Origin: a phage
Reading direction: 5' to 3' (one strand)
Length of the DNA stretch: 64,000 nucleotides
Assembly: GCA_012416205.1 (NCBI GenBank)
Contig: GCA_012416205.1_3033.2
Positions 4,387-11,012 of this stretch are shown in pieces. Made by a program: the position numbers and the translations under genes. Position 1 is the stretch's first letter. Each line of letters opens with the position of its first letter. The notes below the pieces were generated by a model, which was given only the letters and a program-made list of their open reading frames with translations, did not search any database and was not told where the DNA came from.

Positions 4387-4402
4387 GGGACCGAAAGGTC
4401 CC
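4387..4402. terminator. Bidirectional hairpin GGGACC-GAAA-GGTCCC between convergent 24 and rnlB
   Basis: Perfect inverted repeat with GAAA loop and T-run, placed between convergent stops. Confidence 0.55.
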
Positions 4403-4409
4403 TTTTTAT

Positions 4410-5414
4410 TTAACTTACCAATTCAATCCAAGCCGGACGAAGTACATCTTGTACCATTTTAACTAATTCCTTCTTAATCAAAGAAGGATTATCTGCTTGA
4501 GTTAAAGTAATACCTTCACGAGAAGTTTCTTCCAAAATATCTTGAACAGTTAGTCCCATCACCTTTCCAAAATCTTTTGGACCAATTTCGCCAATTTTAG
4601 AAATAACGTTATTTACTCGGTTCAGTGTAACGTAGCAAGCTAAAATTCCCAGCAATTTATTATCAGCTTCTGACAGCTCAACTTTAGCTTTAATAGGCTT
4701 ATCAGACTTTTTCTTTTCGCTAAATTTAGAGTTCTTGCATTTAATCGCTACACGATTGCCATTAGGCATCCAAGAAGGATAACAAGGTTTCAATACATAT
4801 CCTTCAGCGGTAAATACTTCGCCTTTTGCTTCGGCATTCCAAACGCATTTATTTGCATCAACTAATCCAGCATGGTCTACTGTAAAATTATAATCCTGGA
4901 CGACAGAATCTAAATCATTTGGCAATTTAATAAGTTCTTCAAATTTACCACGACCCAAAAGTGGAGCCATTTTAAATTTGAATGTATTACAGAATGATTC
5001 CATCATATAATCATCGACATAAGTCACATCACCACTTTCTGTAGTAACAATAATGTCAAATACATAAAAATCTTTATCACCATAATCGACATTCTTCTGA
5101 ATGCCAGGTCCAGCGAATTCGCCGAAGACTTGATAAGATACAACTGCTGAAGTTTCCATAATTTCTTGGACAGCTTTAATAGAATCTTCGTAATTCTTTA
5201 GAATAATTTCATACCCAAAGAAATCTTCAGCAGGAAGAATCGGTCCAGTACGTTTAGCGCAAGTTACTTTATCACGCTCAATAATCAAAGAAAAGTTTGT
5301 TCCATGAATTTTTTCACGAGCTACCCATTCGCCGCCAGTCAATCCCAAGCTATAAAGTTTTTCAATAAATTTAGAGTTGTAATGATTTTCAAGACTGCTA
5401 TACTTTTTAAACAT
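4410..5414 (-). CDS. rnlB: RNA ligase 2 (Rnl2)
   Basis: 334 aa; nucleotidyltransferase lysine motif KIHGTN; position after gene 24 as T4 24.1/rnlB. Confidence 0.9.
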
Positions 5415-5423
5415 AATTAATCC

Positions 5424-5702
5424 TCAAAATGTAATTTCTAACCAATCACCATCACGTTGATCACTATTGACTTTAAAGCTAAATCCTTCTTTTCTCAGCC
5501 AATCACCAATTTCTTCAGTAATCAATTTATCGCGAGCAGTACAATAATAACTAAAATATGTTTTACCTTGTTCAGCTGCTTTATTAGCAAGTTCTGAAAA
5601 ATCTTTAATAAAACACTCTAGCTTAAACTGTTTACTTTTTAATGCTTTTTCACGTAATTGATTAGCAAAAGATTCATTTTCATAAAGATCATACTGTTCC
5701 AT
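5424..5702 (-). CDS. Hypothetical protein (T4 24.2 position)
   Basis: 92 aa ORF tightly packed after rnlB on the same strand. Confidence 0.5.
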   Translation of the reverse strand: MEQYDLYENESFANQLREKALKSKQFKLECFIKDFSELANKAAEQGKTYFSYYCTARDKLITEEIGDWLRKEGFSFKVNSDQRDGDWLEITF

Positions 5703-5904
5703 TTTTCACCTTTTTATTGATATGTCTTTTTCTATAGACAACTTTTTCTCGAGTTTCAAATTTATTCTTAGCAGTCATAGCTCGAGCCCATAATACAGCC
5801 ACTTCTTTTGCCTGTAAGTTTAATTCACGAGCAATTTCAATGAATGACTTTCCAGACTCATGAAGAGTAAACACCACAACCTCAGTTCTCATAATCAATC
5901 TCAT
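5689..5904 (-). CDS. Hypothetical small protein with helix-turn-helix-like segment (T4 24.3 position)
   Basis: 71 aa ORF; segment SGKSFIEIARELNLQAKEV resembles an HTH; start may be the internal Met. Confidence 0.45.
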   Translation of the reverse strand: MRLIMRTEVVVFTLHESGKSFIEIARELNLQAKEVAVLWARAMTAKNKFETREKVVYRKRHINKKVKNGTV

Positions 5905-5973
5905 GTTATCGAGTTGGTGCCATTATATACATCATTTTCTGATTGTGTTTTGTGTGCTTTCAAAATGAAGAAA

Positions 5974-5987
5974 GGGGCCGAAGCCCC
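5974..5987 (-). terminator. Hairpin GGGGC-CGAA-GCCCC downstream of hoc
   Basis: Perfect 5-bp GC stem immediately 3' of the hoc stop on the minus strand. Confidence 0.5.
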
Positions 5988-5993
5988 TTATGA

Positions 5994-7412
5994 TTATGGA
6001 TAGGTATAGATGATACCAGTTTCTAAAGCAGTTTTATGAATGATGTATCCATTACGTGATTCTTGAACATCAACTTCTGGATAGTCTTTCATCATTTTCT
6101 GAAGAGTGTAACGATGCAAGTAGTACTTACTATCTGGATCATCAGTTTTCCAATCTTTACCTTCTTCGGTCATTTTTTGGATTTCATCCATAACCCACCA
6201 ACCACACCAGATGTAAGCTGAAGTACGATGTGGAAGAGGATGAACATAAGGCAATTCACCTTCTGGTTCTGGAGCAACTTTATCAGTTACCTGAACTTGG
6301 CCTTCTGCTGTAATAGTTTTGCTATCATAATCAGCAGCAGTAACAGTTGCAGTAACTTCAATAGTTTGACTTCCAATAGATGAGGTATCAACGGTATATA
6401 CATTAGTTGACCCTTCTACAGGAGAAGAATCTTTCTTCCATGAATACGCAATTTGTGCTTCTTCTGGAGCATCAGTGACATTAGCGGTAAATGTAGCTGA
6501 AGCATCTTGCTGAACATTAATAGAAGGAGGAGTCAATGTAACCTGCGGATTCATTGTCTTCTTATTAACTGTTAATGATACTTCATTCGAAGTAACTTCC
6601 TTTTCATTGTAATTTTCAGCAGTTACTTGGGCTACACATTTAATTCGTTTTACTCCACTTGTAGTTGGAGTATAGCTAAATGTAGAGTTAGTTTCTCCAC
6701 CAACTTGTGAATCATCTACATACCACTGATACGTAGCAGATGCTCCATCAGGTTGAGAAGCTAAGGCAGCAGTAAATTGAACTGGGGTTCCAATTACTCC
6801 AGCTGAAGGACTATCGGGAGTTACTGCCAAAGTAGTTGTCTGTGTCTTTTTATTAACAGTCAGTGACACTTCATTAGAAGTAACTTCTTTTGCATCATAA
6901 TCTGTCGCGGTTACTTGAGCCACACACTTAATTGTTTTAACTCCGCTTGTGTCAGGAGTGTAATTGAATGTAGCGCTAGTCGCTTCGCTCACAGGAGAAC
7001 CGTCAACGTACCATTGATACGTAGCAGATGCGCCTAATGGCTGCGAAGCCAAAGCAGCGGTAAATTCAACAGCTGTTCCAATCACTCCAGCAGCAGGACT
7101 ATCAGGAGTTACTGCCAAGGTAGTTGTCTGTGTCTTATTTTGAACTGTGATAGTTGTAGTAGCTTCTGCTGTTTCAGCTTCAGTATCAGGAACTGGATTT
7201 GTTGCAACTACCTTAATAGTCTTTTGACCGGCAGGACCTTTTAGTACATAACTAAAAGTTGCTTCAGCCCCATCTTGTGGAACATCGTCTACAGTCCAAG
7301 CATATGTAATAGGTCCATCTCCAGTTTGACCACTGGGTGTAGCAGTAAACTGCTTAGTTTCATCAATAACTCCAGTAGGTGTTTTAGGAGTTATATCAAC
7401 TGTAAAAGCCAT
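5994..7412 (-). CDS. hoc: Highly immunogenic outer capsid protein Hoc with duplicated Ig-like domain
   Basis: 472 aa T/S/V-rich beta-type sequence with two near-identical ~95 aa tandem repeats; sits between 24.x and inh as in T4. Confidence 0.85.
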   Translation of the reverse strand: MAFTVDITPKTPTGVIDETKQFTATPSGQTGDGPITYAWTVDDVPQDGAEATFSYVLKGPAGQKTIKVVATNPVPDTEAETAEATTTITVQNKTQTTTLAVTPDSPAAGVIGTAVEFTAALASQPLGASATYQWYVDGSPVSEATSATFNYTPDTSGVKTIKCVAQVTATDYDAKEVTSNEVSLTVNKKTQTTTLAVTPDSPSAGVIGTPVQFTAALASQPDGASATYQWYVDDSQVGGETNSTFSYTPTTSGVKRIKCVAQVTAENYNEKEVTSNEVSLTVNKKTMNPQVTLTPPSINVQQDASATFTANVTDAPEEAQIAYSWKKDSSPVEGSTNVYTVDTSSIGSQTIEVTATVTAADYDSKTITAEGQVQVTDKVAPEPEGELPYVHPLPHRTSAYIWCGWWVMDEIQKMTEEGKDWKTDDPDSKYYLHRYTLQKMMKDYPEVDVQESRNGYIIHKTALETGIIYTYP

Positions 7413-7421
7413 AAGTTATCC

Positions 7422-8102
7422 TTATTTTAATGTTACGAAAGAAGAATTGCGTGTTTCACGAATTAGAACTGATCCGTCGCGATTAATGTAATAAATTAAG
7501 CTAAATAAAGTTTGGTGTGCCGACGCATGTTCAAAACTAGTTGGGTGAGATTTCCAATCCGGAGTTTCAGCAATCCACTGATAAATCCACCAAGGAACAG
7601 TACAGAATCCTGGATTTTTTCCAATCAGCTGAAGATTCGGACTAAAGTTTTCCGGAAGAGTAAATACAGACGGCTTTTCAGATTCAATAATCTCAGCTAC
7701 AGCCTTCTCGAATTTTTCTTCAACAAAAGGAGTATCTTCAATCAAAACATCGGTATTTTCGGGAATTTTATCCGTTTCGACTACTTCAATTTTAATGTCA
7801 GATTTAACTGGAGAATCAATCAGAAGTGCTGCCTCTGGATTGACTTCTTCATCGTCATATTTTAATCCGTCTGCGGCATCAGCAGCATCAATTAAGTCTT
7901 TAATAGATAACCCATCAGTCTCTGGCATAGGTTCACTAGCGAGCTTCTGGAGGGCTTCTTCAATATCAATAACGATATTATCAAAAGATTTATTCTTTTT
8001 GACCTTTATACCAAACTGTTCAGCATATTCAGCTAATTTAGCTTTAGCTTCTTTATTATCATCAAGAGCCTTCAGCTCTGCAATATAATCTTTATCTATC
8101 AT
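7422..8102 (-). CDS. inh: Inhibitor of prohead protease Inh
   Basis: 226 aa ORF adjacent to hoc, T4 Inh length and position. Confidence 0.7.
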   Translation of the reverse strand: MIDKDYIAELKALDDNKEAKAKLAEYAEQFGIKVKKNKSFDNIVIDIEEALQKLASEPMPETDGLSIKDLIDAADAADGLKYDDEEVNPEAALLIDSPVKSDIKIEVVETDKIPENTDVLIEDTPFVEEKFEKAVAEIIESEKPSVFTLPENFSPNLQLIGKNPGFCTVPWWIYQWIAETPDWKSHPTSFEHASAHQTLFSLIYYINRDGSVLIRETRNSSFVTLK

Positions 8103-8115
8103 AATATTTCCTCAG

Positions 8116-8123
8116 TATAAATA
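8116..8123 (+). promoter_or_regulatory. Late promoter box TATAAATA upstream of the GIY-YIG endonuclease gene
   Basis: Exact TATAAATA 28 bp upstream of the ATG at 8152. Confidence 0.45.
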
Positions 8124-8151
8124 TAGATATATTTATTACTCGGAAAATAGT

Positions 8152-8769
8152 ATGTACCACTTTGTATATGAAACAACAAATCTAATAAATGGTAAAAAGT
8201 ATATAGGAAAACACTCTACTGATGACTTGAATGATGGTTACCTTGGTTCCGGTAAGGCAATTCAGCAGGCTATAAAGAAATATGGTGAAAACAATTTCTC
8301 TAGAACAATACTAAAAGAGTTTAAAACTTCCGAAGAAGCGTACATGTATGAAGAAGAAATTATAACTCCTGAAATAATAAAAAGCAAAAATTATTATAAT
8401 ATGAAACCCGGTGGAATTGGTGGAATTGTTATGACTACAGAGGTTATAGCAAAGATGAAAGAATCTTCCGCTAAGAGATTTGAAAACTCACCGGGCACGG
8501 TATTAGGTACAACTTGTTACACTAATGGAACTAAAAATATTTTTATTAAACCTGGAGAACTTGTTCCAGAAGGATTTGTAAAAGGGATGGTTCATCCTAA
8601 TAGAAAGTCCAGAAAAGGATGTAAAGTCAAACCGACTACCACAGGAACTTTTTGGGTCAATAATGGTGCAATAAATAAATTAATACAGCCAGACGGTATT
8701 ATTCCCGACGGATTTATTAAAGGTCGTCTCATGAAAAGAGATTCTAAAGGCAAATTTAGTAAGGCATAA
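8152..8769 (+). mobile_element. Free-standing GIY-YIG homing endonuclease (Seg family, SegE-like position)
   Basis: N-terminal KYIGKHS...DGYLGSG...EF GIY-YIG module, 205 aa; inserted between inh and uvsW where T4 carries a seg gene. Confidence 0.8.
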
Positions 8770-8771
8770 TT

Positions 8772-10280
8772 ATGGATATTAAAGTACATTTTCACGACTT
8801 CAGTCATGTACGCATCGATTGTGAAGAGAGCACGTTCCACGAATTAAGAGATTTCTTTTCGTTTGAGGCCGATGGATATAGATTTAACCCTCGCTTCAGA
8901 TATGGCAACTGGGATGGACGAATCCGTCTTTTAGATTATAATCGTCTTCTTCCATTCGGCTTAGTCGGGCAAATTAAAAAGTTCTGTGATAACTTTGGCT
9001 ATAAAGCCTGGATTGACCCACAAATTAATGAAAAAGAAGAATTATCAAGAAAAGATTTTGATGAATGGCTTTCTAAATTAGAAATCTATTCAGGAAATAA
9101 AAGAATTGAACCACACTGGTATCAAAAAGATGCAGTGTTCGAAGGATTAGTTAATCGTCGTAGAATTCTTAATCTTCCAACATCTGCAGGTAAATCGTTA
9201 ATTCAAGCTCTGCTTGCTCGGTATTATTTGGAAAATTATGAAGGTAAAATTCTTATCATTGTTCCAACAACTGCTCTGACAACTCAGATGGCTGATGACT
9301 TCGTTGACTATCGTTTATTCAGTCATGCAATGATAAAGAAAATTGGTGGCGGAGCATCAAAAGATGATAAATATAAAAATGATGCACCAGTCGTTGTTGG
9401 TACATGGCAAACTGTAGTAAAACAACCGAAAGAATGGTTCTCACAGTTTGGAATGATGATGAATGATGAATGCCATCTTGCTACAGGAAAAAGTATTTCA
9501 TCTATCATATCAGGTTTAAATAACTGCATGTTCAAATTTGGTCTATCGGGTTCATTACGCGATGGCAAAGCCAATATCATGCAGTATGTTGGAATGTTTG
9601 GTGAAATATTTAAGCCAGTAACGACTTCTAAATTAATGGAAGATGGACAAGTAACTGAGTTAAAAATTAATAGTATTTTTCTTCGCTATCCCGATGAGTT
9701 CACTACTAAATTAAAGGGAAAAACTTACCAAGAAGAAATAAAAATTATTACTGGGCTCAGTAAAAGAAATAAATGGATCGCTAAATTAGCTATTAAACTT
9801 GCACAAAAAGATGAAAACGCTTTTGTCATGTTTAAACACGTATCGCACGGTAAAGCTATTTTCGATTTAATTAAAAATGAATACGATAAAGTTTATTACG
9901 TATCAGGGGAAGTTGATACCGAAACACGCAACGTAATGAAAACCTTAGCTGAAAACGGTAAAGGAATAATTATAGTAGCTAGTTATGGTGTATTTTCTAC
10001 TGGTATTTCAGTTAAAAATCTGCATCACGTTATTTTAGCACACGGTGTTAAATCTAAAATTATTGTATTGCAAACAATAGGTCGCGTATTACGTAAGCAT
10101 GGTTCTAAAACAATCGCAACAGTCTGGGACCTCATAGATGATTGCGGTGTTAAGCCAAAATCTGCTAATACGAAAAAGAAATACGTTCATTTGAACTATC
10201 TTTTAAAACACGGCATTGATCGTATTCAGCGCTACGCAGATGAAAAATTTAATTACGTAATGAAAACAGTTAATTTATAA
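8772..10280 (+). CDS. uvsW: UvsW DNA/RNA helicase
   Basis: 502 aa; Walker A-like PTSAGKS and DECH box (MMNDECHLATG); T4 UvsW length. Confidence 0.92.
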   Translation: MDIKVHFHDFSHVRIDCEESTFHELRDFFSFEADGYRFNPRFRYGNWDGRIRLLDYNRLLPFGLVGQIKKFCDNFGYKAWIDPQINEKEELSRKDFDEWLSKLEIYSGNKRIEPHWYQKDAVFEGLVNRRRILNLPTSAGKSLIQALLARYYLENYEGKILIIVPTTALTTQMADDFVDYRLFSHAMIKKIGGGASKDDKYKNDAPVVVGTWQTVVKQPKEWFSQFGMMMNDECHLATGKSISSIISGLNNCMFKFGLSGSLRDGKANIMQYVGMFGEIFKPVTTSKLMEDGQVTELKINSIFLRYPDEFTTKLKGKTYQEEIKIITGLSKRNKWIAKLAIKLAQKDENAFVMFKHVSHGKAIFDLIKNEYDKVYYVSGEVDTETRNVMKTLAENGKGIIIVASYGVFSTGISVKNLHHVILAHGVKSKIIVLQTIGRVLRKHGSKTIATVWDLIDDCGVKPKSANTKKKYVHLNYLLKHGIDRIQRYADEKFNYVMKTVNL

Positions 10281-10292
10281 GGGCTTCGGCCC
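10281..10292 (+). terminator. Short hairpin GGGC-TTCG-GCCC after uvsW
   Basis: 4-bp GC stem with TTCG loop followed by TTT; weak. Confidence 0.35.
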
Positions 10293-10305
10293 TTTGGAGA
10301 AAAAG

Positions 10306-10536
10306 ATGTTACTAGAATTTAAACAATTTCTTTATGAAGCTTCTATTGATGAATTTATGGGTAAAATTGCCTCTTGTCAAACATTAGAAGGTCTAGAAGA
10401 ACTTGAAGCTTATTACAAGAAAAGAGTTAAAGAAACTGAATTAAAAGATACTGATGACATCTCTGTGAGAGATGCTTTGGCAGGAAAAAGAGCTGAATTA
10501 GAAGATTCAGACGATGAAGTAGAAGAAAGCTTTTAA
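10306..10536 (+). CDS. uvsW.1: Small acidic protein UvsW.1
   Basis: ORF from the first ATG (the track's 10294 start is a TTG); acidic C-terminus; position matches T4 uvsW.1. Confidence 0.6.
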   Translation: MLLEFKQFLYEASIDEFMGKIASCQTLEGLEELEAYYKKRVKETELKDTDDISVRDALAGKRAELEDSDDEVEESF

Positions 10537-10591
10537 ATTAAAAAAGGCCCAACCAAAAAGGAAGGGCCAAAACTATAGACTAAAGGTCACA

Positions 10592-10759
10592 CTATAGCAA
10601 AAGTTGTGTTTCATTTAATTGTTCTTCCGAACTTTCTGAAACTGGTAGTTCTTTAATGTAATTATAGCAAGGCCCAGGATGTACAGGACCTTTGTCTGTT
10701 TCAACAACCAATGCAGAATCGATTGGAGTTTTACAGACAACACAAATCTTATCTGACAT
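10592..10759 (-). CDS. 55-aa CxxC-containing small protein (not in the supplied ORF track)
   Basis: Own translation: MSDKICVVCKTPIDSALVVETDKGPVHPGPCYNYIKELPVSESSEEQLNETQLLL; GAGGAG Shine-Dalgarno 6 nt upstream of ATG; Cys6/Cys9/Cys31. Confidence 0.45.
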   Translation of the reverse strand: MSDKICVVCKTPIDSALVVETDKGPVHPGPCYNYIKELPVSESSEEQLNETQLLL

Positions 10760-10787
10760 GATTGTCTCCTCTAAATTATATATCTAT

Positions 10788-11012
10788 TTATATAACTCTC
10801 ATATGCATATCAATGCCCATATCTTTAGAATAAAAATATTCATCAAGATATCCGGCAAATTTTCCTTTAATATAAAGTACATCTTCACCGCATGGATGGT
10901 CGGCCAGGATACGAATATCCTGACGCTTGAGATTATACTTTTTCATTAAGAATTGAATTTCCGTTTCAAATTCTTCTTCATAATTAAAAGCATCATCAAT
11001 GCTATATCTCAT
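10788..11012 (-). CDS. Hypothetical protein (uvsY.-1/-2 region)
   Basis: 74 aa ORF directly downstream of uvsY on the same strand. Confidence 0.55.
   Translation of the reverse strand: MRYSIDDAFNYEEEFETEIQFLMKKYNLKRQDIRILADHPCGEDVLYIKGKFAGYLDEYFYSKDMGIDMHMRVI

Follow-up and report, generated by a model that had tools for sequence, protein, structure and literature searches.

Two tandem copies of Ig-like domain 2 in the Hoc head-decoration protein of a T4-type phage, an apparently old duplication within a known and widespread length polymorphism

Does the long Hoc protein encoded in the window, by which we mean the whole 64,000-nucleotide stretch of phage DNA that was analysed, owe its length to the tandem duplication of an Ig-like domain, as the original prediction had it, and if so, how old is that duplication and how did the number of copies come to vary? 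Hoc serves as a display scaffold in T4-based vaccine and delivery platforms, and it is the founding example of phage mucus adherence.

The window is that of a Tequatrovirus, and its nearest record over the first 20 kb is phage AdolfPortmann (97.7%). The 472-aa protein matched PHROG 1149, 'Hoc-like head decoration', with an E value of 1.6e-140, and also PHROG 21694. A phmmer search of the PDB matched the T4 Hoc chains (5vf3_Z and others; E = 9.6e-223); T4 Hoc alone was found in that search, which missed RB49 Hoc. The genes are arranged in the order rnlB (4410-5414), 24.2, 24.3, hoc, inh (7422-8102), segE and uvsW, as in the late-gene region of T4 (NC_000866). Residues 377-472 of the window protein are identical to residues 281-376 of T4 Hoc at 94 of 96 positions, and it is this C-terminal region that was used as the criterion for Hoc homologues by Fokine et al. 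2023 (PMC10385173). Judged by homology and gene order, the ORF encodes a T4-type Hoc head-decoration protein, whose parts are listed with the neighbouring features in Table 1.

Table 1. Coordinates of hoc, its predicted domains and repeat, and features of its neighbourhood (window positions)
Feature	Position	Strand	Remarks
hoc gene	5994..7412	minus	1419-nt ORF, 472 aa; four Ig-like domains and a C-terminal capsid-binding domain
Ig-like domain 1, aa 1-92	7137..7412	minus	aligned to T4 Hoc aa 1-92
Repeat unit A, aa 93-188	6849..7136	minus	Ig-like; without T4 Hoc counterpart in direct alignment
Repeat unit B, aa 189-284	6561..6848	minus	Ig-like; nearest to T4 Hoc domain 2
Last Ig-like domain, aa 285-380	6273..6560	minus	aligned to T4 Hoc aa 189-284, i.e., T4 Hoc domain 3
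C-terminal capsid-binding domain, aa 381-472, and stop codon	5994..6272	minus	
Tandem repeat, 288 nt x 2.0	6555..7136	minus	Tandem Repeats Finder, 79% matches, score 729
24.3-position ORF	5689-5904	minus	71 aa vs 56 aa annotated in T4
segE	8152-8769	plus	GIY-YIG homing endonuclease; between inh and uvsW
uvsW	8772-10280	plus	502 aa vs 587 aa in T4 RefSeq record

The internal tandem duplication was recovered by two repeat finders as two 288-nt copies in one reading frame. The direct-repeat search placed them at 6555-6842 and 6843-7130, ungapped and 77% identical. The repeat-finder register is 6 nt off that of the domain boundaries, the register being arbitrary in tandem repeats, and the limits originally given for the duplication, 6567-7139, fall within about 12 nt of those of the repeat finders. 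The four motifs that had been named, KTQTTTLAVTPDSP, ATYQWYVD, IKCVAQVTA and KEVTSNEVSLTVNKKT, are all present in both copies. The copies had been described as near-identical segments of about 95 aa, or 285 bp. They do form a tandem pair, with a real size of 96 aa and 288 nt, and they are similar, but 'near-identical' is too strong a wording for a protein identity of 81% (78 of 96 residues, with the copies exactly 96 aa apart). At the DNA level, for which about 80% identity had been predicted, 223 of the 288 positions (77.4%) are identical in ungapped alignment. A shuffle control of 10,000 replicates gave an expectation of 73.9 +/- 7.2 identical positions (z = 20.6 for the observed value). Identity is unevenly distributed along the unit: the segment nt 1-62 is 92% identical, nt 63-241 only 71% and nt 242-288 83%.

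We aligned the protein with T4 Hoc, which is 376 aa long (NC_000866), in agreement with the predicted excess of about 96 aa. The alignment opened a single gap of 96 aa, which is exactly one unit. The repeat count thus differs from that of T4, and the claim of one extra Ig-like domain therefore stands. Unit B shares 97% DNA identity with the unit of RB3, 91% with that of T4 and 77% with unit A, and orthologues of unit A are present in RB30, RB27, REP2, PTK and QOTSP. The last Ig-like domain is only about 34% identical in DNA to units A and B.

The Ig-like assignment of the repeat units was checked with Pfam, and it held, the units scoring above the cut-offs of PKD and Ig_2. The scores over cut-off in the protein were 38.4 bits for PKD (cut-off 23.5), 28.9 for Ig_2 (27) and 28.6 for PKD_3 (26.3). 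Ig_2 and BiPBP_C stretches were located at residues 126-177 in unit A, the best PKD stretch at 195-267 in unit B, and Ig_3 and I-set stretches at 289-373 in the last Ig-like domain. Domain 1 had no Pfam match of its own, and its Ig-like nature rests on the structural model and on the T4 literature. In the AlphaFold2 (AF2) model, which was computed from a single sequence and whose C-terminal domain and inter-domain geometry are unreliable (mean pLDDT 68, pTM 0.30), four all-beta blocks are predicted. Domain 1 appears as a beta-rich block with a pLDDT of about 80-89, the strand pattern of unit A recurs in unit B exactly 96 aa further on, and confidence dips at residues 189-191 and 286-290, which are unit boundaries. 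The top PDB match of the model in Foldseek was RB49 Hoc (3SHS; E = 2.3e-10), followed by multi-Ig receptors.

We determined how common this architecture is by megablast with the hoc gene, which matched 685 hoc-bearing phage records. Whole-gene coverage could not be used to count long and short forms, as the two half-matches of a short form join to 100% coverage. We therefore used a query of 60 nt centred on the A|B junction at E <= 1e-9, a threshold beyond the reach of half-matches. The junction was found in 226 of the 685 records, about one third, all of which cover at least 80% of the query. In a systematic sample of 60 rows, about 20 had a gene of 1419-1425 nt and about 30 a T4-like gene of 1131 nt, the remainder being more divergent genes. 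The extra domain has a precedent in the database. The record of RB30 hoc, AY101183.1, bears a repeat_region note that credits an additional immunoglobulin-like domain to an intragenic repeat, together with five domain features. That repeat_region spans CDS nt 338-915, and the Ig domains of the record lie at CDS nt 283-570 and 571-858; in the window the repeat occupies gene nt 277-852. The window gene has the traits by which the RB30-type allele is defined, namely, a 288-nt intragenic repeat that duplicates Ig domain 2 and a gene of 1419 nt. Within the searchable library, the literature yielded no account specific to a four-Ig Tequatrovirus Hoc, and the prior description consists of the AY101183.1 annotation and of general statements on variable Ig number. 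Among the latter, 650 Hoc homologues with strings of one to ten Ig-like domains have been described (Fokine et al. 2023, PMC10385173), and a two-Ig Hoc variant has been functionally studied (PMC11853027). The extra Ig domain in Hoc is thus a real, already known and widespread polymorphism. What is added here is that the single-unit alleles, that of T4 included, range from A to B through mosaics.

These records also bear on the explanation that the repeat was falsely expanded in sequencing or assembly, an error to which tandem repeats are notoriously prone. The gene reads through in an intact frame, and hundreds of independently sequenced genomes share the structure, as does a Sanger-era single-gene record. 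In addition, with no more than 77% identity between the copies, reads map unambiguously. An artefact, which we would hardly credit at all, was ruled out by the RB30 single-gene record and the 226 junction-bearing records.

The age of the duplication was assessed from the divergence of the two units. Between A and B, dS was 1.17 and dN 0.11, giving a dN/dS of 0.10, with synonymous sites near saturation, and the divergence of the two units within RB30 and within REP2 was like that in the window. Orthologous units of different phages differed by a dS of only 0.13-0.57, and for the flanking domains of the window and T4, dS was 0.25 (domain 1) and 0.36 (last Ig-like domain). As dS between A and B is near saturation and far above that of orthologues, the A/B split therefore predates the divergence of the sampled phages, and the low dN/dS ratio shows both copies to be under purifying selection. 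By these measures the A/B duplication is old rather than recent. A recent, lineage-specific duplication, by which the window Hoc would be freshly derived from a T4-like 376-aa form, might be suspected from a length excess over T4 of exactly one unit and from the long peptide motifs that are identical in both units. However, 65 of the 288 nt differ and dS exceeds that of orthologous units several-fold, and the same A-then-B layout is found in the 226 records, among them those of two phages of the classical RB collection, RB30 and RB27. We consider a recent origin highly improbable, and it was ruled out on the A/B divergence and the junction-bearing records.

We then asked what the single unit of the short forms is made of. 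Twenty-four A/B-diagnostic sites were defined from six long-form genes and scored on the single unit of 12 short-form phages, these genes being a sample and not a census. RB3 and ZN18 have a pure or nearly pure B unit. In T4, AV110 and mar005P1, the unit is of B type with an A-type patch near its 3' end. SH7, Sso113, Shinka and FelixPlatter have pure or mostly A units, that of SH7 being pure A, and CrRp10, SYGD1 and slur07 have complex mosaics. Compared with RB30, its nearest long form, the T4 unit is A-like over the first ~54 nt, turns B-like over nt 63-219 and returns to A type around nt 228-252. Copy number varies even between close relatives: CrRp10 shares 97.3% identity with the window over 20 kb but matches it over a span that is shorter by exactly 288 nt.

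If A and B underwent one unequal crossover, the expected product would be a hybrid that is A at its 5' end and B at its 3' end. This one-step deletion model, A[1..x]+B[x..288], was tested on the 12 short forms. RB3 and ZN18 fitted it with 0 mismatches, and plausible breakpoints, at differing places, were obtained for T4, AV110, mar005P1, CrRp10, Sso113 and Shinka. The remaining short forms showed 4-23 mismatches, and T4 and CrRp10 need extra conversion patches. For the SYGD1 unit, the opposite polarity fitted better (12 vs 23 mismatches). Single deletions as the sole origin of the short forms were dropped, since several units do not fit and the polarity of SYGD1 is reversed; repeated unequal recombination and conversion are therefore preferred. 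The gradation of single units from pure A through mosaics to pure B likewise indicates that the copies have undergone unequal recombination repeatedly. The 376-aa Hoc of T4 may accordingly be a derived state, a collapsed mosaic, and if so, being 'longer than T4' does not imply an origin from a T4-like form. As for the direction of the change in copy number, we infer, rather than prove, a two-unit ancestor.

The neighbourhood of hoc was compared with that of T4 over positions 4400-11000. The rnlB-24.3, inh, segE and uvsW segments are 96-100% identical in DNA, and identity drops to 81-93% within the Ig-domain part of hoc (about 6150-7350). The drop being confined to that part, it thus forms a local divergence island beside a near-identical segE, the product of which is identical to T4 SegE at 202 of 205 residues. 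In crosses of T4 with RB30, homing of SegE has been reported to carry flanking markers along by co-conversion. Two smaller differences were noted in this region. The alignment of window positions 5701-5850 with T4 has a 33-nt gap, in the 24.3-position ORF, and the length of the uvsW product differs from that in the T4 RefSeq record (Table 1), a record that itself flags sequence discrepancies in its uvsW section.

The divergence island is compatible with another origin of the long form. A and B might be divergent alleles of domain 2, or A might have been imported from a distant phage, the two having been joined by register-shifted recombination between co-infecting phages; the single-unit state would then be ancestral and the long form the recombinant. 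Single-unit genes of pure A (SH7) and of pure B (RB3, ZN18) both exist, and Hoc Ig regions are clearly exchanged as modules, Pinarejo and CCU7 combining the same C-terminal domain with another Ig set. Recombination is intense among T-even phages, and the adjoining SegE promotes co-conversion of its flanks. Nevertheless, pure-A and pure-B units are also expected from unequal crossovers in the conserved unit ends, the order A then B was constant in all six long forms examined, and the joining of alleles needs a dS of about 1.2 in one domain against the much lower values of its two flanking domains. We regard this origin as unlikely.

It is very probable, in our view, that the window carries a five-domain Hoc allele of RB30 type, in which an old A/B duplication is part of a segregating length polymorphism with recurrent collapse. 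Domain 2 is present as two paralogues in tandem, with A following domain 1 and B preceding the last Ig-like domain, and the allele is one state of a polymorphism of three, four or five Ig domains among closely related T4-like phages. Copy number would change when units recombine homologously out of register, the ends of the units being their best-conserved parts. Most single-unit alleles, including that of T4, would descend from a two-unit ancestor by collapse or recombination, this ancestor having collapsed repeatedly and occasionally expanded, with gene-conversion patches added. One may go further and suppose that the number of three, four or five Ig domains is a fast-switching polymorphism under selection, driven by unequal recombination at the unit ends that would enlarge and shrink the domain-2 array again and again and reshuffle A and B segments, with the T4 form as a collapsed mosaic; we put this forward as a possibility that we rather doubt. 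If it were true, natural populations would hold a range of fibre lengths and of glycan-binding avidities, and a second copy of domain 2 would double a mucin-contact surface.

What might the additional domain do at the capsid surface? In T4, every gp23 hexamer has one Hoc at its middle, anchored by the C-terminal domain, and the string of Ig-like domains stands out from the capsid as a linear fibre about 180 A long (Fokine et al. 2023, PMC10385173). Monomeric binding at this site and dispensability for growth are among the traits that characterise T4-type Hoc. By extrapolation from T4, the extra Ig domain would add about 40-45 A, roughly a quarter, to the fibre. The extra unit would also provide a second copy of the domain-2 surface, which could raise the reach of the fibre or its avidity for glycans or surfaces. 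Ig-like adhesins of the bacteriophage-adherence-to-mucus (BAM) type are characterised by domains that attach to mucin glycans and by enrichment of the phage in mucus. In phage PNJ-9, an SLT tripeptide in Hoc domain 2 has been reported as the contact to MUC2, as mapped with a hoc gene only about 65% identical in DNA to that of T4 (PMC11853027). SLT is found at residues 183 and 279 of the window Hoc and once in T4 Hoc. Given a second domain-2 surface and a duplicated SLT, a tuning of mucus adherence through the number of domains, as originally suggested, is therefore a reasonable idea, and we consider it plausible. Among sequenced T4-like phages, about one in three has the longer, five-domain Hoc, and the T4 form may be a collapsed mosaic; both points bear on the choice of display scaffold and on comparisons of mucus-adherence results obtained with different phages.

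Among known systems, the closest to the window Hoc are the proteins of RB30, RB27, slur02/04, PhiZZ30, QOTSP and AdolfPortmann, which have the same architecture. RB30 Hoc (AY101183.1, AAM52483.1) is likewise encoded by 1419 nt, comprises 472 aa and has a 288-nt repeat at the same position. The window and RB30 genes are collinear, with 93.5% DNA identity (93% in unit A and 92% in unit B), and differ by point substitutions only; the proteins are identical at 442 of 472 residues. For QOTSP Hoc the count is 468 of 472. Three phages labelled Mosigvirus, PTK (L008), AV110 (L014) and mar005P1 (L016), have a hoc gene about 90% identical in DNA to that of the window, and the presence of a Tequatrovirus-type hoc in them could reflect either the taxonomy labels or exchange between genera. 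The annotation of vB_EcoM_G29 (L005) splits hoc into two CDS that overlap (1092-1556 and 1498-2565), each named 'PKD domain protein', which suggests a frameshift, from a sequencing error or in a disrupted gene.

T4 Hoc (NP_049793.1, 376 aa; PDB 5vf3, 8t1x and others) shares its locus and synteny with the window Hoc, and its domain 1, domain-2 unit and last Ig-like domain are collinear with those of the window protein. It differs in having one domain-2 unit instead of two. The net charge of the window Hoc is -27, against -14 for T4 Hoc, and the extra unit contributes only -4 to the difference; the acidity of Hoc has been tied to virion dispersion (Fokine et al. 2023, PMC10385173). The N-terminal fragment of RB49 Hoc (3SHS) resembles the window protein as a linear string of Ig-like domains, but sequence identity is about 17%, and RB49 Hoc comprises three Ig domains and lacks a recent internal repeat.

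Other forms vary in the Ig string itself. The 471-aa Hoc of Pinarejo (L012, 861-2276) has a C-terminal region 96% identical in DNA to that of the window and four Ig-like domains of a different sequence type, undetected by megablast; this combination of a conserved anchor with a foreign Ig string implies modular exchange of the whole string. CCU7 Hoc (567 aa; L003, 1501-3204) has five Ig-like domains, arranged as domain 1, an A-like unit, two domains of another type, from the Ig set also present in Pinarejo, and a differing last Ig-like domain. The Hoc of YUEEL01 (568 aa; L004, 940-2646), a Tequatrovirus-like phage as is CCU7, also has five Ig-like domains, of which three are A/B-family units in tandem, all of them mosaics of A and B, and exemplifies a variable Ig number on a conserved C-terminal anchor. 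Expansion goes much further in Serratia phage Muldoon, whose Hoc has 1174 aa and 10 Ig domains (Fokine et al. 2023, PMC10385173).
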